A stretch of DNA of 64,000 bases from a virus. Below are positions 1-63,900 of the stretch, one piece after another. Position 1 is the stretch's first letter; every line of letters begins with the position of its first letter. Position numbers and translations under genes: made by a program. The notes below the pieces were generated by a model. The model ran no database searches. It saw nothing but the letters and a program-made list of their open reading frames with translations, and was not told the origin of the DNA. The stretch lies in IMG/VR virus record IMGVR_UViG_3300045988_101743, positions 1 to 64,000 of that record, one strand, 5' to 3'.

Positions 1-135
1 GGTGGCCGCTGAACAGTCGCCTGTGTTGGTGGCCGCTGATTGGTCGCCTGTGTTGGTGGCCGCTGAACAGTCGCCTGTGTTGGTGGCCGCTGAACGGTCG
101 CCTGTGTTGGTGGCCGCTGATTGGTAGCCTGTGTT
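1..135 (-). repeat. 27-bp tandem repeat x5 (ggtggccgctga[ac/tt][ag]gtcgcctgtgtt), in-frame coding for 9-aa units TNTGD[Q/R/C]SAA of the CDS below
   Basis: Five head-to-tail 27-nt units at 1-27, 28-54, 55-81, 82-108 and 109-135 with 1-3 substitutions each. The minus-strand frame through them has no stops. Confidence 0.9.
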
Positions 136-489
136 GGTTGATTTCGCGTCCTTAAAATTCACTTTATCCAATATGAATTTTACTCCAGCCTTAATCAATC
201 CATTAAGACCTATTTCTGCCGATATATGTATATGCGATGTGGCGACTTTACAGTCCTCATTCGCTTGATCGACAATCCCACCACCTTCAACCTCACAATA
301 TCTGGAATCGCTTGGCGAATAATATCTAAACACGTCAAAAGGGTCCTCGCAGAAATGGAAACCTCTCTTGCAACACTTAACTTCTCCTTCTTGTTCGTAA
401 TCCTTTCCAATCTCGTATTGGAATCCACGGCATTTAAGGTCTTTATCAAAACCTTTGAAACCGCGAATTATATTATCTTTCTTACTCAT
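1..489 (-). CDS. Hypothetical Cys-rich protein with C-terminal 9-aa tandem repeats; 3' end truncated by the window edge
   Basis: ATG at 489-487 (MSKKDNIIRGFKGFDKDLKCRGFQYEIGKDYEQEGEVKCCKRGFHFCEDPFDVF...). The frame stays open through the tandem repeat to position 1. It is absent from the ORF track because it runs off the edge. Confidence 0.5.
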   Translation of the reverse strand, partial: MSKKDNIIRGFKGFDKDLKCRGFQYEIGKDYEQEGEVKCCKRGFHFCEDPFDVFRYYSPSDSRYCEVEGGGIVDQANEDCKVATSHIHISAEIGLNGLIKAGVKFILDKVNFKDAKSTNTGYQSAATNTGDRSAATNTGDCSAATNTGDQSAATNTGDCSAAT

Positions 490-13037: not shown

Positions 13038-14252
13038 ATGAAGTACCGCATTTACGTAGACACAACGAAAAAGAGGCAAGACGAGCAAAGCCCGGTCGTG
13101 CTAATATTCGAGGACAGTGGAATGAGGTTCAAGATTTCCACGGGCCTGTTCTCTTCCAGGAAGTTCACAGGAAAGGAGTTTCCAAAAGAAGAGCCCAACC
13201 ACAAGGCTAAGACTCTCAATCTTGCGAAAAAGCTGCTTGATATCGACGAATACCTACTGGTGAACAGCGGTGTTCCGTTCAACAAGGCGAAAGAGGATAT
13301 CAAGGCGATTTTGAACGGAGAGGGGAACGCCCTGAAGCCAATCACGTTCTACATGGAGGAGCTGGCCAAGACCAAGACGCCGAGCACCGCAAAGTTCTAT
13401 ATCAAGACAGCGAGGAAGATCAGGGAGTTCGACCCATCAGCCACCTTCGACACCATAGATGCTGAATGGCTGCAAAATTTCGACACGCACATGAAGGAGA
13501 ACGGGAACACGACCGTCAATGGCCGCGCCATCCATCTTCGCGACATAAAGGCCGTGTTCAACGCCGCCTTGGCCGATGAGATAACGACCAAGTACCCATT
13601 CAGGAAGTTCAAGATCAAGGCGGACAGCGTACCCATCAAGAACATAACGCTTGAGCAGCTTAGGGAGCTCAGGGATTGCAAGGTTGAGCCCAACAGCCGT
13701 ATTTACCGCGACCTGTTCCTCCTGTCGTTCTACCTTTGCGGCATCAACCCTGTCGATCTGCTGCACCTCACTAAGGCAAACATCAAGAATGGGCGCATCG
13801 TTTATACGAGGAGCAAGACGCACAAGCTGTACGACATACCTCTGCCACCGGAAGCGAAGGAGATTTTCAGGATGTATAAGGGGAAAGACTACCTGTTGGA
13901 GGTGCTTGACTATTACGGTGATGATTACCTGCATTTCCTGAGCAGATGGAATAAGATGCTGAAAAGAATAGGAAATATGAAGATATGCGAGCGTTCGGAC
14001 GGCAGGAAGGTGCTGAGGATGGGTGAGCCTATATTGCCGAATCTGACTGTTTATTCGGCCAGATACACCTTTGCGAGCATCGGTGCGGTGCTTGAGATAC
14101 CGAGAGAGACCATAGCGTTGTGCCTTGGTCACTCTTGGGCCGATGTCACCGCGCATTATATCAGCTATAGCATGAAGCGTATAGATGATGCGGTAAGGAA
14201 GATCATTGACTATGTGAACGCAGACATTTCCAATGAAAATGACGATATATGA
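13038..14252 (+). CDS. Tyrosine site-specific integrase
   Basis: 404 aa. C-terminal catalytic region ...RYTFASIGAVLEIPRETIALCLGHSWADVTAHYISY carries R, HxxR and Y. Confidence 0.85.
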   Translation: MKYRIYVDTTKKRQDEQSPVVLIFEDSGMRFKISTGLFSSRKFTGKEFPKEEPNHKAKTLNLAKKLLDIDEYLLVNSGVPFNKAKEDIKAILNGEGNALKPITFYMEELAKTKTPSTAKFYIKTARKIREFDPSATFDTIDAEWLQNFDTHMKENGNTTVNGRAIHLRDIKAVFNAALADEITTKYPFRKFKIKADSVPIKNITLEQLRELRDCKVEPNSRIYRDLFLLSFYLCGINPVDLLHLTKANIKNGRIVYTRSKTHKLYDIPLPPEAKEIFRMYKGKDYLLEVLDYYGDDYLHFLSRWNKMLKRIGNMKICERSDGRKVLRMGEPILPNLTVYSARYTFASIGAVLEIPRETIALCLGHSWADVTAHYISYSMKRIDDAVRKIIDYVNADISNENDDI

Positions 14253-17299: not shown

Positions 17300-17530
17300 C
17301 TATTTATCATCAAGAGTTCGACCTATATGCCATTTTTGACAAGTCCTGCATTGATATGCTGTATATCCCTGCTCCAACAGATTAGGTCGTAATTGTAGAT
17401 ATTCCCAAGCATCATCCTCAGTCTCATAGGCGACCTTCGCTTTCCACGAGCGGTACTTTCGTGTGTAATGCTCAGGGTCAGGAGTGAATGGAGGAACCTT
17501 GTTAAAATACCTATGTCTGTTTTTGGCCAT
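17300..17530 (-). CDS. Small hypothetical protein with a zinc-ribbon-like CxxC
   Basis: YQCRTCQKWH. The ATG at 17530 sits 12 nt after the stop that would end a full-length methyltransferase. Confidence 0.45.
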   Translation of the reverse strand: MAKNRHRYFNKVPPFTPDPEHYTRKYRSWKAKVAYETEDDAWEYLQLRPNLLEQGYTAYQCRTCQKWHIGRTLDDK

Positions 17531-17542
17531 TTGTTGCTTTTG

Positions 17543-18138
17543 TCAGTTAAACCATTTCACGGCTGTATCTCCTTTGTACCCTTTCTCCCAAATGAACCAT
17601 GCGTATGCGGCGGCGCTGCTTCCGTACGCCTTGAAATCGCCATTCATGGCACATTTTAGCCGTGACGAGCTTACCCAAACGCGAATGGGGGGGGGGAAGA
17701 ACGGAATAGAGAACGGCGAGCCTTTCCTTCAAGGAATGTCAGCTTGAGGAACATCGCCACCTTTTTTCCATTCGGGATGATGCGTAGAGCTTTCTCTACG
17801 AACTCCTGGGCGTACTTGTATGGAGGGTTTGTTACGATATTTCCATCCCATGACAAGTTGTCTATTGCGAGGAAGTCGGCCACTTCGCCGTAACCTCTAT
17901 CCACAAGGTCGCGGCTCACCACATCATACCCTGCCTTTTTCAGCACATCGCTCATGTGTCCTTCGCCACATGATGGCTCCAAGATCTTGCCTTCAAAATG
18001 CTCCAGCCGGCAGAGCCATTCTGTGGCCTTGGGCTCTGTAGCATAATAGTCCTCACACTGGCGCTCTCCATCCGTATGGTTGCTTGCTCCCAATGTCTTG
18101 AATATGGCGGCTGCGCCACCTGTCCAGTCCTTAGCCAT
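17543..18138 (-). CDS. DNA methyltransferase (N6A/N4C type; motif I then NPPY) interrupted by a frameshift at a G10/C10 homopolymer; intact in-frame part is 17671..18138
   Basis: LEPSCGEGHMSDVL is motif I (SAM-binding) and IVTNPPYKYA is motif IV. Reading through the tract 17688-17697 with one extra C gives a protein-like C-terminus ...AYAWFIWEKGYKGDTAVKWFN. The as-is and -1 frames end in SSPPPFAFG* or an Arg-rich string. Confidence 0.55.
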
Positions 18139-18161
18139 TCCGTTCGTTTTTTTACAATCTA

Positions 18162-18374
18162 TTATTTTCCCCTGCCTTCGACGGGTTTCTTTGCTGACTT
18201 ACACCAACCGAACACATCGTCATCGCCTGAATGTTCTTCCAGAAATTCAACCGTGTTTTTTAGACCCTTGGAAGCGTCTTTGTCTGAAATCCCCAAGTTT
18301 CTTGTGGCAGTAAAGAACAGCTTGGCCATCAGTTCTATTCCACTCTCCTCTGAGTTCAACACTATTTTTCCCAT
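18162..18374 (-). CDS. Small hypothetical protein (70 aa)
   Basis: ORF. Confidence 0.35.
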   Translation of the reverse strand: MGKIVLNSEESGIELMAKLFFTATRNLGISDKDASKGLKNTVEFLEEHSGDDDVFGWCKSAKKPVEGRGK

Positions 18375-25647: not shown

Positions 25648-26913
25648 TTAGAGGTTGGCGACAAGCGCGCCGTACGCGGCCTTGCTTGTGCGTAGGGCCT
25701 TCTGGGCGCATCCGATTGACAGGAAGCCGCAAAGCTCCTTGTCGACCTTCGCCCTGTTGGCCTTGACGTTTCGGCCACGGCCACGGTCTATGCAACCTAC
25801 GGCCTGTGTCTTGACGTACCCGAGGCCACCAACCTTCGTCTTGCCTGTGCCTACCGCACGTATGCAGTCCATGGCAAAGGCGTTGAGCTTGTCGATGTCC
25901 TCCTTGACATTGAGGACGGGAAGAACCTGTGTGGCCCACGAGAACTCACCGTAGCCCTTGTAGAGGTATCGGTTGACAGCGTTGATGGCTTTCGCCATCG
26001 TATTGCCGCGCTTCTTGATGGTCCTTCTCTCAATCTCCTTCTGGAAGGTCTTGATCCTCTTTGCGGAGAGTGAGATGCTCCTTCCCTTGATGGAATACCC
26101 GAGGAACTTGAACCAGTGGTCCGAGTCAAGGTATTCGACCTTCTTGGGATTGAGCGTCATGCCCATCTTGGCCAGCTCCTCCGTCATGATCACCATGGCC
26201 TCCTTGTAGTCCTTTCCGATGAACAGCGTGTCGTCAGAGTAGCGGACGTAGTATCCGCCGAGACGGGACAGCCTGTCATCGATATGGTACAGGACCACGT
26301 CGGCGAGCCATGAGGCAACGCTGCAACCCTGCTTTAACGACTGGTACTTCTCTTGTAGAACGCCTTCTGTGTCAAAATAGTAGTTGCAATGGTAGTAATC
26401 CCTGATGACATCAACGAGAGCCGACTTACCGAACTTGTCCTCGACCTTGTCAAAGGCCCAGTCAACGAACGCAAGCGGCACCGTGTCGAAATACTTCGAC
26501 AGGTCGGACTTGAAGCCTATGACCGTACCGTTGGCGGAGGCTATCCTTGTGGAAACCTCCTGTACGACACGGCCACAACCCAGGCCCTTTTGGTAGGACT
26601 TGCAATTGGGATGCACCATCTCGGGCATAATCTCAAACAACAGGTCGTTTGCGATGCTGAGAAGAATGCGGTCGGCAGGCTCATTGATATAGACGGTACG
26701 GAACTCTCCGTTGTCCTTTGGTATGAGCGCCGTGTGTGGCGGCATGATCTTGTACTTTCCGTCACGTATTCTCCTATACATCTCAGCGCGCGCCTGTGGC
26801 GTAGTGAGCCTGTACATCGTGGCCTTGTCCATGTCCTTGTCCATGCCCTTCGCTATGGCGTATTGCCAACGCTCGGGCTCAAAGAACATCTGTAAGATTT
26901 TGTCTTCTTTCAT
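25648..26913 (-). CDS. Reverse transcriptase (RT motifs 1-7, YSDD catalytic box); family unresolved
   Basis: IPKDNGEFRTVY (motif 1), FKSDLSKYFDTV (motif 3, DGR-like KYFD), KQGCSVASWLADVVL (motif 4, group-II-like QG), YVRYSDDTLFIG (motif 5) and WFKFLGYSI (motif 7). 421 aa, with the cassette motif aacattaaccaatagaattATG upstream. Confidence 0.85.
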   Translation of the reverse strand: MKEDKILQMFFEPERWQYAIAKGMDKDMDKATMYRLTTPQARAEMYRRIRDGKYKIMPPHTALIPKDNGEFRTVYINEPADRILLSIANDLLFEIMPEMVHPNCKSYQKGLGCGRVVQEVSTRIASANGTVIGFKSDLSKYFDTVPLAFVDWAFDKVEDKFGKSALVDVIRDYYHCNYYFDTEGVLQEKYQSLKQGCSVASWLADVVLYHIDDRLSRLGGYYVRYSDDTLFIGKDYKEAMVIMTEELAKMGMTLNPKKVEYLDSDHWFKFLGYSIKGRSISLSAKRIKTFQKEIERRTIKKRGNTMAKAINAVNRYLYKGYGEFSWATQVLPVLNVKEDIDKLNAFAMDCIRAVGTGKTKVGGLGYVKTQAVGCIDRGRGRNVKANRAKVDKELCGFLSIGCAQKALRTSKAAYGALVANL

Positions 26914-28792: not shown

Positions 28793-29071
28793 TTAGGCTG
28801 TCCTGTAAACTGCATCACATTCTATAATGGCCTTGTATTTCTTAGGGAACTTGGACCATCCATTGTACGCCTTGATAACTTGCCTCGACGACCACCATGT
28901 GACTGCCTCCTCGTCAATGTGGAAGCATTTTAGCTTATCCGTATCGTCATACAGAACCCACTCGCCTGATGCAAGCACGCCTTCCCTTAGATGAATGGCA
29001 TGGCCGCCAGACTCCGAATACCGACGCACAAGGTCGTCAACATAGTGGTAGTCGCAATAAATCTTTCTCAT
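28793..29071 (-). CDS. Hypothetical protein (92 aa), cassette gene
   Basis: cattattaaccaaccaaagaacgtattATG upstream. Confidence 0.45.
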   Translation of the reverse strand: MRKIYCDYHYVDDLVRRYSESGGHAIHLREGVLASGEWVLYDDTDKLKCFHIDEEAVTWWSSRQVIKAYNGWSKFPKKYKAIIECDAVYRTA

Positions 29072-29140
29072 AATACGTTCTTTGGTTGGTTAATAATGCT
29101 GACAGGAACGGCCACGCTAATGGCCGCACCCGGAAAAGGC

Positions 29141-29614
29141 TCAATCGTTTGAATCCACCCATTTGCGAAGGATGACGAAATCCCTGTCGTTCTTGGACTG
29201 CCAGAACCACGTTCCGTACTCGTCCTTCCATTTCAGGGCACCGGTCATGACCGCTGCAAGCACCAATGATTCAAGCATGAACCTCGCAAACTCTCGCGGC
29301 TCGCCGTAAATCATGTCAGCGTCCGACAACTCCTTCTCGGGCAAAGCCTTGAAATAGGTCCTGCGGTGCGACTCCGAGCGCTCTGATGGCACGGACCGCT
29401 TGTACGCCTCGTAGCGAACCTCAAGGCACTTGATGATGTCGTGCCCCTCAAAATCCTCCTCGCTAACACCGAGGGGAAGGTCGTGCTTTCCATCCTTGAT
29501 GAGATACTTACCGTCAATGATGAGGGATCGCCTCTCAAGGTTGACATAGAACTTTGCGCCATTGCTGACGAGCTCCTCTGTCTCCTTTCCGAAAATCTTA
29601 TCCATAATAATCAC
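29141..29614 (-). CDS. Hypothetical protein (157 aa), cassette gene
   Basis: catattaaccaacaaacgtgattattATG upstream. Confidence 0.5.
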   Translation of the reverse strand: MIIMDKIFGKETEELVSNGAKFYVNLERRSLIIDGKYLIKDGKHDLPLGVSEEDFEGHDIIKCLEVRYEAYKRSVPSERSESHRRTYFKALPEKELSDADMIYGEPREFARFMLESLVLAAVMTGALKWKDEYGTWFWQSKNDRDFVILRKWVDSND

Positions 29615-29669
29615 GTTTGTTGGTTAATATGCGCCAGTCACGCCGTATTCCGGCATGGCTGGCTGTTGG

Positions 29670-30209: not shown

Positions 30210-30413
30210 TTAATAAAGAGTTGCTCTGTCACGAAGGTTGCCGCTTATATCGCCATCCTTCTGTAGTCCATCAATCCAGTCATTGAAATTCATGTTCAAG
30301 TCAAGATCGAACTTTGTCTTCTTCCCCGTGTAGTCTATGCCACACTCGTCACAAAGCTGCCAGAACGCCTTTCTTAGCTCCTTCTGGTTCGTGTAATAAT
30401 ACTTTTTTGCCAT
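30210..30413 (-). CDS. Hypothetical protein (67 aa), cassette gene
   Basis: ttattaaccaatcaaattttgaattATG upstream. Confidence 0.45.
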   Translation of the reverse strand: MAKKYYYTNQKELRKAFWQLCDECGIDYTGKKTKFDLDLNMNFNDWIDGLQKDGDISGNLRDRATLY

Positions 30414-30461
30414 AATTCAAAATTTGATTGGTTAATAACAAGATCCGCATTAAGCTACACA

Positions 30462-35473: not shown

Positions 35474-35510
35474 AATTGCTAAAATTTAGTTGGTTAATAA
35501 TGTGCGATAC

Positions 35511-35616
35511 CCCATCGCTATGGGGGGCGCGCGCTATGGGGGGCGCGCGCGTGGGGGGCGCGCGCGTGGGGGGCGCGCGCGTGGGGGGGGCGGTTAACCG
35601 CCCCCCCACGTTGCAA
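35511..35616. repeat. GC-rich tandem repeat (about 15-16 bp x5: ctatggggggcgcgcg / cgtggggggcgcgcg) ending in a perfect palindrome gtgggggggg-cggttaaccg-cccccccac
   Basis: Five G6 runs plus a G8 run alternate with (CG)4. A 13-bp inverted repeat centres on TTAA. The block sits alone in a roughly 1-kb AT-rich ORF-free region. Confidence 0.85.
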
Positions 35617-44051: not shown

Positions 44052-44124
44052 AGCGGAGTGGCAGCAGTGGTAGCTCGCTTGCCTCATGAGCAAGAGGTCG
44101 TTGGTTCGATTCCATCCTCCGCAA
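44052..44124 (+). tRNA. tRNA-Met(CAT)-like gene (imperfect acceptor and D-stem pairing; no encoded CCA)
   Basis: Anticodon stem cttgc/gcaag with loop ctCATga. T-loop ggTTCGATTcc. D-loop AGTGGTA. 3' strand ctccgc pairs with 5' gcggag. Confidence 0.45.
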
Positions 44125-44184
44125 CAAGAGTAAAAAGATAAAACCTGGAAACACCAGGTTCAGGATAACAAACTTTTTAACACA

Positions 44185-60900: not shown

Positions 60901-63900
60901 CTGGCATGATGGCCTTGTGCCAGACTTTCAACGTCAAGGCTGGCGACACGGCCAACCTTGCCAACCGCTATTACTGGCGTTTGGTTGTTGGAGTAGGCCA
61001 AGAAACGCTCAACGATGGCAAGCTATACGATTACGTCATTCTCTCGAACAAAAAGACCTTCGTCGGCAACGAGGCCGTGGTGCCCGTGGGCTCTACGCAG
61101 GTCATAGGATGGAACGGCCACCCCTTGGTGTTCGGCAATGTGGCCATCGAGGTTGGCTCTAAAGGCGGCATGGAGAGCTTCGCTACCGTGGTGGCCGACT
61201 ATGAGGGTCTGACCAACGACGAGTCGGGAACGGCCATCGTCTCCCGCGTGTTCTACGGCTATGAGCCTGCCGCCGATGGTGGAGAGCCCGACGCTCCCCA
61301 GCCCTACGATGTCATTGTGCAGGCTGGCGATCAGGTGCAATGGGGCAAGTATGGCAACCTCATTAAGCTCACAACCTCTGTGGAGGATGGTGTTGATGCT
61401 GCCAACGCGTCCTCCATAGCCATGTTCCACAACATGGGAGCGCCCTACAAGGTGGGCGGTGGGGTCAATCCATATCAGTGGAAGACGCTAACGTCGCTCG
61501 ACTCGCCTGAGCTTGTCTTAAAGAACGCCAATAACTTCAAGTTCTTCACCGACGATGATCCCAACAACATCATCGACCCCATCACGGTTTCGTATGAGAT
61601 AAATGCGAGCGCCGATTTCATCATTCGCAAGCCTACCACGCAAACGGCCACGCCCACCGACATGACCTTTACCGTCACAAAACGGATGGGCAACAAGACG
61701 GAGGATGTCACGGCCACCGTCAATCTCTTTGCCGACTACACTACAACCGACGGAGCAACTAAGGCTGATGTGCCCATCAAGCGCCTGTCCGACATTGGCG
61801 TGAGTTTTTATGCGCTCGCCTCTGTTTCCGTCAAGGCAAAGGATAAGAGCGGTGGCGATACGCTTGCCACTCTCAGCATCCCTGTCTTGTCGGATGGCGC
61901 ACAGGGTAGCGCAGGAGCGCAAGGAAAGCCCGGTCAGGATGGCAAGAACGGTGTTGACGGAAAGCCGGGGGTTGACGGTAAGGATGGCAAGACCCCATCG
62001 GTTATGTCAACCACCTACAAGTATGCGGTTACGGCTACTGCCGTAAAGCCTGCCGATAACGCTTGGCAAACCACCATGCCCGACCCTTCTAAGAACGAGG
62101 GCAAGTTTATGTGGACCAAGACCACAACTACTTGGAGCACAGGCGATGCGACCGACACCTTCACTTGCACCTATGTCGGCAAGGATGGCGAGAATGGAAC
62201 GAGCGTCACCATTAAGGGTACGTTTGATAGCGTTGACCAACTGCCCACCACGGGAAAGGAGAATGAGAGCTACATCATCGCTGGCGACCTGTGGGCTTAT
62301 ACAGGCACGGATAAAGAGGATGCCGAGAACCATAACGGATTTACCAACATGGGCCGCATCAAGGGTGAGGATGGCAAATCAGCTACCCAATACTATATTC
62401 ATACAGCATGGATGAAAGATGCGGATGGCACAGGATTTACCATCGCTAATCCGCAGGGCACGGCCTATCCCTATATCGGCACACTCATCGACACCAACGA
62501 CAAGGACTCGTCTAATTGGCGTGACTATAAGTGGACCTACGTCAAGGGTGACACAGGTTCAAAAGGCGACAAGGGCGACCAAGGTGAGAAAGGTGAGAAA
62601 GGTGAGAAAGGTGAGCAGGGTGAAAAAGGCGAGCAGGGCTTGCAAGGAGTGAAAGGTGATAAGGGTGAGAAAGGCGACAAGGGTGACCAAGGCTTGAAAG
62701 GAGACAAAGGAGAGCCGGGCGAGCAGGGTATCAAGGGTGACCCAGGTAACGATGGCCAGCCCGGCAAGGACGGCACCAATGGCACCGACGGCAAGGATGC
62801 CGTGGAGTTTGTCATTAAGGATGCGCCCATGGTGTTCGACACGGCAACCGATGGCGTTGTGCCCACCGGCACGAGCAAGACCGCAAAGATTTACGTCTAC
62901 CGTGGTGGCGCGAACGTCAGCACCCAGCCTATCGCAGGCATCGTTGACCAACAGGGATGCTCTGACGCAAGGGTGACGAAGTTTTCCGACCATTTCGAGG
63001 TGACACTTGAAGGCCGCCACATCAAGAAGGATGGCGGTGTGAGCGTGACGAGCGGATATGTCGCCGTGCAACTCACCTATGATGGCAAGGCTTATGTGCA
63101 GCAGGTGCCGTTTCTCGTTAATGTGGCCAAGTTTACAGGCATGGTCAGCTCCAACAACGCGGAGCTGAGCAGCAAGTACACCGAGCTCACGAATAAGCAG
63201 GCGCAAACCGCCAAGGATGTGACGAACTTGCAGACTACGCTTAATGGCGTGCCTATCAAGAGCAACGACGACCTCACCAAGTACACCTCGGAGATTAAGC
63301 AGACCGCACGTGAGATTTCTGTCGAGGTAAGCTCGGAGGCCGTGCGCACAGGCCGTAACATGCTATTGGGTTCCGATTTCCACCGTCAGGGCTACGGCTA
63401 TGCGCCCAACGGCACGGCCTTCACGGAGAGCAACCTAAAGATACGCACCTACGATGGCTTTGCCGGTTGCAACTCCCTGTTCATCGAGCAAACGGCCATC
63501 GGCAACAGCTACGCAGGCGTAAGGTGGTCCGATGTGCCCGTTACGGGAGGCAAGACCTATGTGATAAGCGCTTGGCTCAAACGCATGAGCGACACCTTCG
63601 GCGAACGATGCTCCATCATCGTGCATGAGTATGCTGGCAACGGCACGACAATAGCGAAGAACAACTCCTTCACGGCGCTTGATGCCGATGCCGACCCGAA
63701 GGGCACGTGGCGCAAGAAGGCGGTTACTGTCACCTTGCAGGCCACCACAACAAGGGTGAACGTCATTTTCTGCCTTGGCTCAACAGGCGCTTTCTCGCTC
63801 TGTCAGCCTATGATGGAGGAGGGCACGGAGAGCAACGGGTGGACGCTCGCTCCTGCCGACTACGGTTACATCATGGGCAACCGTATCGTGGGCAGCTTGG

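Follow-up and report, generated by a model that had tools for sequence, protein, structure and literature searches.

A viral DNA stretch of 64,000 nucleotides (nt), positions 1–64,000 of the IMG/VR record IMGVR_UViG_3300045988_101743 and hereafter called the window, was found to carry a gene for a putative DNA methyltransferase that is split by a run of ten cytosines. Comparison with related phages indicates that this orphan phage methyltransferase probably undergoes phase variation through the hypermutable homopolymer, and that the window holds the gene in its OFF state. The run was located at 17687–17696, as G10 on the plus strand and hence C10 on the coding minus strand, one base below the position 17688–17697 given in an earlier note on this DNA. 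It was the sole G/C run of ten in the window, where 0.04 such runs would be expected, and a run of this length was present in 2 of 100 dinucleotide-preserving shuffles.

The minus-strand open reading frame (ORF) extended from the ATG at 18138 to the TAA at 17673–17671 and encoded 155 amino acids (aa). Its 3' end read TCT TCC CCC CCC CCA TTC GCG TTT GGG TAA, with the stop four full codons past the codon that holds the last C of the tract; the distance of eight codons reported earlier is correct when counted from the first tract codon but not from the last. Addition of one C (C11) or removal of two (C8) joined this ORF to an open frame of 47 codons downstream of the tract, which lies at −1 relative to the upstream ORF, begins IRVWVSSSRLKCAMNGDF, ends AYAWFIWEKGYKGDTAVKWFN and has the full translation IRVWVSSSRLKCAMNGDFKAYGSSAAAYAWFIWEKGYKGDTAVKWFN. 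The 47-codon frame stopped at the TGA 17545–17543, 12 nt short of the following minus-strand gene, which starts with the ATG at 17530. The restored C-terminus with its closely spaced stop, predicted earlier for the addition of one C, could thus be seen in the repaired translation, which was 197 aa long with C8 and 198 aa with C11. The features of the gene were as follows.

17543–18138, minus strand: whole methyltransferase gene in the ON-state reading (197/198 aa), split over two frames in the window; based on the repaired translation, homologues and PHROG 799.
17671–18138, minus strand: OFF-state ORF of 155 aa as present in the window, ending in SSPPPFAFG and a stop.
17687–17696, minus strand: hypervariable homopolymer C10, encoding a Ser-Pro-Pro(-Pro) loop before the predicted strand 153–156; based on the sequence, relatives and an AlphaFold2 model.
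17953–17982, minus strand: motif I, the S-adenosylmethionine (SAM)-binding loop LEPSCGEGHM, residues 53–62; based on the alignment.
17818–17829, minus strand: motif IV, NPPY, the catalytic motif of amino-methyltransferases, residues 104–107; based on the alignment.
17671–17673, minus strand: premature TAA stop of the C10 frame; based on the sequence.
17543–17686, minus strand: stranded intact C-terminal segment of 47 codons plus TGA in the −1 frame; based on the repaired translation, alignment and structure model.

Tract length among relatives was surveyed by pattern scans for the tract and its downstream flank, irrespective of frame, in IMG/VR and in metagenome contigs. The two sets overlap, and pooled counts are therefore given as distinct alleles (300-nt flanks plus length).

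IMG/VR, 37 contigs: C7 out of frame, 8; C8, 21; C9 out of frame, 6; C11, 1; in-frame C7 (ATC), 1.
Metagenomes, 50 contigs: C7 out of frame, 10; C8, 28; C9 out of frame, 10; C11, 0; in-frame C7 (ATC), 2.
Pooled, 71 distinct alleles: C7 out of frame, 15; C8, 38; C9 out of frame, 15; C11, 1; in-frame C7, 2.

The comparison with related phages that had been proposed earlier revealed that many relatives keep an uninterrupted C tract at the exact site, and approximately 40% of the tract-bearing contigs were out of frame. The only C10 allele was that of the window itself. The C8 and C11 alleles encoded proteins of 196–205 aa ending in KWFN, and the C7, C9 and C10 alleles gave products of 154–196 aa with unrelated tails. 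No compensating indels were found in the C7, C9 or C10 alleles, and the downstream 47-codon frame was intact in every one of them except L134, in which it was interrupted by a stop. Two further loci, L159 (C8) and L169, carried an extra A beside the run and were both frameshifted. Among the 80 best IMG/VR loci, a sample biased to intact genes, about one third carried ACC CCC CCC, and the others carried interrupted forms such as ACC CCA CCC, ACT CCC CCC and CAG CCA CCT.

In the protein alignment, all homologues had one proline fewer than the C11 repair, reading S/T-PP-I at this point, and the usual ON state is therefore C8. The restored state proposed in the earlier note, C11, does read in frame and occurs in one relative (L032 in IMG/VR, also as L116), but it is not the usual in-frame length, and the window allele stands at +2 from the common ON state C8. 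Differing run lengths were observed on identical 300-nt flanks in five contig groups, and at least eight clusters at ≤1% divergence mixed lengths. Since lengths differ on identical or near-identical backgrounds, many independent, recent and recurrent length changes are indicated. The range of 7–11 among relatives, with differences on identical flanks, lends support to the earlier proposal of a methyltransferase switched by homopolymer slippage. Off-frame lengths also formed the consensus of deep assemblies, namely L121 at 635x (C7) and L144 at 347x (C9), and L120, L123 and L154 at 113–146x. Deep contigs included ERZ1034980 NODE_58 (635x, C7), ERZ1035014 NODE_36 (347x, C9) and ERZ1034842 NODE_42 (714x, C8). 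As in repeat-contingency loci, the repeat lay within an ORF, varied in length to excess, and toggled the product between full-length and truncated forms.

Assemblies of the same strain were sought by exact-protein look-ups of the neighbouring genes. The ENA scaffold ERZ28624166 (scaffold_4, sample SAMN03283241, 83,732 bp) aligned with the window along 5,214 nt without a mismatch, and its single gap was the tract, C9 in the scaffold and C10 in the window, both out of frame. From run SRR1761668, a Logan contig 100% identical to the window started exactly with the run, and the preceding Logan contig ended about 200 nt upstream of the tract. A scaffold of Prevotella sp. CAG:1092 started inside the methyltransferase tract, and another viral contig ended inside a different variable G/C tract. 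A population of mixed lengths, through branching assembly graphs, would be expected to give contigs that end at the run and assemblies that differ there. Such signs may point indirectly to a length mixture or switching within one population, but read errors in the homopolymer could have the same outcome. Three contigs from independent assemblies ended exactly inside one of the variable G/C runs (L175 and L169 at their starts, L198/L046 at the end).

For a noise control, homopolymers of the fetched loci were grouped by their 12-nt flanks, and distinct alleles off the modal length were counted. The control consisted of short runs, since long A/T runs were too few for a length-matched one.

A/T runs of 4–7: 0–3% non-modal.
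G/C runs of 4: 0% non-modal.
G/C runs of 7 or more: 40–60% non-modal.

The controls rarely vary, and the deep consensus calls come from many separate SPAdes assemblies; together these make it unlikely that the length differences stem from generic assembly noise. Codon usage was also considered. Across the 55 long ORFs of the window the four Pro codons were used about equally (25% each), and CCC-CCC was present in 0 of 13 Pro-Pro dicodons. At the tract site, CCC-CCC was present in 30 of 73 distinct in-frame relatives (41%), usually after ACC, against roughly 6–9% expected from codon use. This retention is only suggestive of a tract that is maintained.

The repaired protein had its sole strong family match to PHROG 799 'DNA methyltransferase' (E 3.8e-66), and a search for metagenome homologues returned 7978 hits among 8000 candidates scored. 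The best 120 homologues were 195–254 aa long, nearly all of them 196–199 aa, with 76–88% identity over 98–100% of the query. Motif I and NPPY, noted earlier as intact, were both present in the 155-aa ORF. In the alignment of 33 homologues, L53, P55, C57, G58, E59 and G60 of motif I and N104, P105, P106 and Y107 of NPPY were invariant, and a C-terminal block (SSSR..C.A.NG.F...AYAWF.W.KG...W.FN) was invariant or nearly so. The stranded segment of the window encodes this conserved block as VSSSRLKCAxNGxF...AYAWFxWEKGY...KWFN. Because full-length homologues match the repaired protein and the C-terminal block is conserved, the stranded downstream frame is the true C-terminus. The earlier assignment of this frame as the true gene end was thereby borne out, the repaired protein aligning to homologues of 197–199 aa at up to 88% identity over 99–100% of the length. 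The exact-sequence look-up of the 155-aa OFF product returned no match, and a search of GenBank phage DNA with the 1.1-kb region returned one 88-nt match at 75% and no annotated relative.

Motif I followed by NPPY is the signature of gamma-class amino-methyltransferases. In the repaired protein, motif I precedes the (D/N)PP(Y/F) motif IV, within a Rossmann-type pattern of strands and helices. The AlphaFold2 model consisted of alternating strands and helices with a mean predicted local distance difference test score (pLDDT) of 67.6 and a predicted template modelling score (pTM) of 0.71. The sequence search of the PDB with the repaired protein gave E 0.23 or worse. Comparison of the model with solved structures using Foldseek revealed chains of M.TaqI as the best matches (PDB 2np6, 1aqj and 1g38; E 4e-7, TM-score approximately 0.5), and further structural matches were the tRNA m6A methyltransferase TrmM and CamA. 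M.TaqI, a gamma-class N6-adenine DNA methyltransferase, resembles the phage protein in motif order as well as being its top structural match; unlike the phage protein, a 197-aa core at 16–20% identity, it is about 390 aa long and has a second, C-terminal target-recognition domain. No separate target-recognition domain was found in the phage protein, which aligned to the catalytic domain of M.TaqI only. Judging from the alignment and the model, the protein is most likely a small stand-alone (orphan) SAM-dependent amino-methyltransferase with an M.TaqI-like core, of the N6-adenine DNA type. In the model the tract encodes a loop at residues 148–151, and the frameshift removes the predicted strands 153–156, 179–185 and 193–196, all of which lie in the stranded segment. 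Since the conserved C-terminal 47 residues and the last predicted strands are lost, it is reasonable to infer that the truncated OFF product is inactive.

According to the phase-variation explanation, the C run would gain and lose single bases through slipped-strand mispairing during DNA replication. C8 and C11 would yield the complete enzyme of 197/198 aa (ON), and at C7, C9 and C10 the frameshift would leave a presumably inactive product (OFF) that lacks the 47 conserved residues of the C-terminus. The window allele, C10 here and C9 in the other assembly of the same strain, would then be OFF. Both states of the locus are present across natural populations, and progeny or lysogens would be a mixture of methylating and non-methylating forms. 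The pay-off may be a kind of bet-hedging, in which methylation shields the phage from the restriction-modification systems of its hosts, and the OFF state may offer escape from methyl-dependent restriction or relief from a cost to the lysogen. We infer the slippage mechanism, its reversibility, the loss of activity in the OFF state, the DNA substrate and the selective benefit; the sequences themselves show the tract, its effect on the frame, its varying length among samples and apparently within them, the recurrence of length changes on identical backgrounds and the intact frames downstream. Anti-restriction and epigenetic marking, which had been ascribed to the methyltransferase earlier, may likewise be among its effects.

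Several points weigh against this explanation. In Pfam and NCBIfam searches with the repaired protein, all matches fell under the curated cut-offs, and the thresholds of every named methyltransferase family were missed (Methyltransf_23, 16 bits against a cut-off of 27; Dam, 12.9 against 28.1). The confidence of the structure model was only moderate, as its mean pLDDT indicates, and the putative activity and the choice of DNA over RNA as substrate are family-based assignments. Interrupted tracts were present in roughly half of the relatives, so that hypermutability cannot be essential to the gene, and shared ancestry inflates or confounds the enrichment of CCC-CCC. Homopolymer read errors could also account for the contig breaks and the differing assemblies at the run. 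Reversibility is only suggested by the single in-frame C11 allele. Finally, the tract lies at approximately 75% of the methyltransferase ORF, and not near the 5' end as in many classical switches.

The main rival explanation is a mutational hotspot without any switch function, in which the OFF alleles are young pseudogenes of a dispensable gene. The position of the gene in an exchangeable accessory slot, which holds a Dam-like PF02086 methylase in close relatives, agrees with this, as do the interrupted and stable tracts of many relatives, the high frequency of OFF states (about 40%) and the additional stop in the downstream frame of the OFF allele L134. However, L134 was the one exception among the C7, C9 and C10 alleles, all others retaining an intact downstream frame, and the OFF alleles did not form decayed clades but were dispersed over backgrounds that match those of ON alleles exactly or at ≥99% identity. 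The in-frame C11 (L032/L116) most simply implies passage via OFF lengths and back. The presence of CCC-CCC in 41% of distinct in-frame genes, where ~6–9% is expected, and the occurrence of the same architecture in four other DNA-modification-type genes also speak against a mere hotspot, which is considered unlikely. An error of sequencing or assembly, with C10 miscalled in a genome that is truly in frame (C11 or C8), would account for the unstable length call, seen in the differing lengths of the two same-strain assemblies (C9 in ENA scaffold_4 and C10 in the window) and in the break of a third assembly at the run. Yet neither C9 nor C10 is in frame, and both assemblies would need a directional error of 1–2 bases. 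No other difference was found over the 5.2-kb comparison and the long ORFs of the window (the 2404-aa ORF, portal and terminase) are intact. With off-frame consensus present in many unrelated Illumina/SPAdes assemblies at 100–600x, and with short A/T runs and G/C runs of 4 rarely varying in the same loci, such an error is very improbable as the explanation.

The least probable of the rivals, and one given hardly any weight, is programmed recoding, in which −1 ribosomal frameshifting on C CCC CCC, or RNA-polymerase slippage, would yield two products by design. The sequence C CCC CCC formally matches the slippery pattern X XXY YYZ, and the conserved C-terminus would follow exactly from a shift of −1 or from an mRNA with one additional C. 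Long homopolymers are generally known for transcriptional slippage. Against this, most relatives are single-frame, with C8 or interrupted codons, and no one programmed event fits all alleles, as C9 needs a +1 shift and C7 and C10 need −1. No stimulatory structure could be detected after the tract, where the minimum free energy of the 111-nt segment was no better than that of shuffled sequences (z = +0.47). With opposite shifts required among relatives and no downstream structure above shuffles, programmed frameshifting was rejected as the main mechanism. Slippage at long homopolymers is treated in a review (PMC5009743). Low-level leaky rescue of the full-length product may occur, which would be compatible with phase variation.

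In bacteria, the switching of methyltransferases by repeats has been studied extensively, and hypermutable poly-G has been described in host-recognition genes of phages. The bacterial phase-variable methyltransferases ('phasevarions') include the Type III Mod enzymes of Haemophilus, Neisseria, Helicobacter and Moraxella and Type I hsdM/hsdS genes with repeats (PMC5909438, PMC7383803, PMC13076061). The phage gene resembles them in that a simple sequence repeat lies within a methyltransferase ORF and its length toggles the frame, with ON/OFF methylation as the outcome, which is putative for the phage gene. Unlike it, those systems are chromosomal, large and of Type I/III with a restriction partner, and mostly carry tetra- or pentanucleotide repeats near the 5' end; the phage gene encodes a stand-alone protein of 197 aa in a temperate phage, has no recognisable nuclease neighbour and carries a mononucleotide run about three quarters of the way along. 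Being stand-alone and without a restriction partner, the phage methyltransferase is not a member of the Type I/III phasevarion families. The Type IIG enzyme cj0031 of Campylobacter jejuni carries a poly-G tract with an experimentally demonstrated ON/OFF effect on site-specific methylation (PMC4889913). In both cases a methylating enzyme has a G/C homopolymer within its ORF; however, cj0031 is a bacterial chromosomal fused restriction-methylase, whereas the present gene is phage-borne and methyltransferase-only.

Hypermutable poly-G tracts in Campylobacter phages (Sorensen et al. 2021, Cell Rep 35:109214) are cited in PMC12823448. Those tracts reportedly affect host recognition and belong to virulent phages, in which they occupy genes for receptor binding or the tail. 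The present tract is similar in being a phage G/C homopolymer of varying length, with putatively mixed phage populations; it differs in that the genes concerned here serve DNA modification, in a temperate phage of the gut whose host is probably one of the Bacteroidota. The prophage-borne 'roving' methyltransferases of the Bacteroides fragilis group acquire diversity through gene swapping (PMC10333322). They too are orphan enzymes in exchangeable slots of temperate Bacteroidota phages, but that article does not contain the word 'homopolymer' and describes no repeat-based on/off switching. A phage-borne methyltransferase switched by a repeat was found neither in the full-text literature searched, where all cases were bacterial apart from the tail example of the Campylobacter phages, nor in a 2026 review of prokaryotic methyltransferases, though this is not proof of absence.

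If phase variation of this gene is real, gut phage populations would be epigenetically heterogeneous by design, which would affect the prediction of host range and restriction escape from a consensus genome. 'Frameshifted' accessory genes in viral metagenomes may then be OFF states rather than errors or pseudogenes, and methylome differences might arise among lysogens of abundant gut Bacteroidota. The hypothesis is open to direct testing with existing public reads and methylation-aware long-read sequencing.

The analysis of the flanks of relatives revealed four further G/C runs, of lengths 5–10, inside genes on the methyltransferase strand, where they read as coding poly-G. These four genes were absent from the window.

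Site A: 283-aa PAPS-reductase-domain protein (PF01507), L012:1756–2607; intact with G9 (L012), split with G7 (L008) and G5 (L006).
Site B: 385-aa PAPS-reductase-domain protein (PF01507), L003:1141–2298; intact with G8 (L003), split with G6 (L034) and G7 (L014).
Site C: 339-aa CxxxCxxC protein without a Pfam match, L007:868–1887; intact with G8 (L007), split with G7 (L042) and G9 (L003).
Site D: 256-aa PF01555 DNA methylase, L058:3615–4385; intact with G7 (L058), split with G8 (L047) and G9 (L067).

Both states could be counted among IMG/VR contigs at two of these sites. At site D, G7 (ON) was present in 8 contigs, and G6, G8 and G9 (OFF) in 1 contig each. The calls at site A were limited to the ATTGTA and GAATTG flank classes, the GATTGG and GACTGG classes being excluded because several frames were open in them; one class had G6/G9 (ON) in 4 contigs and G5/G7 (OFF) in 5, and the second had G7 (ON) in 1 contig and G8 (OFF) in 4. 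This comparison shows that the methyltransferase tract belongs to a group of similar sites, which lie in DNA-modification-type genes of these phages. A more tentative proposal, judged less likely than not, is that the phage lineage keeps a whole set of G/C-homopolymer switches, in the M.TaqI-like, PF01555, two PAPS-reductase-domain and Cys-rich genes. If so, the phage populations of a burst or of lysogens would be a combinatorial mix of DNA-modification states. On the phage side, such a set would correspond to the phase-variable restriction-modification of bacteria, as a hedge against the diverse and variable restriction systems of the hosts.

The window carried phage genes for an integrase (13038–14252), a portal, a large terminase, a major head protein, a 2404-aa ORF and a reverse transcriptase. 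It belongs to a temperate human-gut phage of approximately 84 kb, probably one of Prevotella. The tract context was found in genome collections only in Prevotella metagenome-assembled genomes or scaffolds, and the relatives were human-gut viral contigs of 50–105 kb. The methyltransferase lay within a long leftward block of small genes, in a cassette at 17300–18374 which consisted of a 70-aa gene, the methyltransferase and a 76-aa gene.

17300–17530, minus strand: downstream gene of the three-gene cassette, 76 aa, encoding a small Cys-x2-Cys protein; ORF without a family match.
18162–18374, minus strand: upstream gene, 70 aa, first of the same cassette; based on the ORF and relatives.

The exact-sequence look-up of the 76-aa downstream protein returned no match. 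No nuclease domain was detected by Pfam in the ten neighbouring ORFs, in which the only match above the cut-off was YopX (PF09643), and the PHROG scan of four neighbouring ORFs returned one family of unknown function and one weak 'transcriptional regulator' match. Because the neighbouring ORFs are without a nuclease domain, the methyltransferase was classified as an orphan. In the close relatives L176, L178, L180–L182 and L184, the slot held a 240-aa Dam-like PF02086 methylase together with a 68-aa gene, and these relatives shared the flanking 97-, 179- and 203-aa proteins exactly with the window. Based on this arrangement, the slot is an exchange point for methyltransferase cassettes.

Other features could be observed elsewhere in the window. 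The second-longest G/C homopolymer, setting aside the repeat region at 35.5 kb, was a C8 run at 654–661, in a region of only short and doubtful ORFs. A T12 run at 2199–2210 (A12 on the coding minus strand) occupied the last codons of a DUF6633 ORF (2178–2813), just upstream of a 40-aa ORF and a 4Fe-4S/radical-SAM-like ORF (1478–2050). The reverse-transcriptase gene was located at 25648–26913 (PHROG 1423, E 1.3e-25), and no template/variable repeat pair was detected around it within 22–32 kb. A diversity-generating retroelement was thus rejected as the source of the tract, both for the lack of a repeat pair in this interval and because such elements alter adenines and not run lengths.

At 35508–35607, an intergenic 15-nt tandem repeat (TGGGGGGCGCGCGCG, 4.7 copies) was followed directly by a perfect G/C hairpin (GGGGGGGGCGGTTAACCGCCCCCCC), and the alternating CG and G-runs of this region could form unusual DNA structures or a strong terminator. 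A recurring motif, CATAAT followed by TTGGTTAATAA, was present at 29056–29096, 29590–29630 and 30398–30438 and also near 35489. In the plus-strand reading it sits just past the start codons of minus-strand genes, and it might serve the leftward early genes as a common promoter or leader element. Two further repeats were a 27-nt tandem repeat of 5.1 copies at the start of the window (1–138) and a repeat with a 9-nt period (GGxGAx-like, collagen-type) inside an ORF at 62561–62714. A tRNA-Met gene (anticodon CAT) was located at 44052–44125, between the terminase gene and the structural block.

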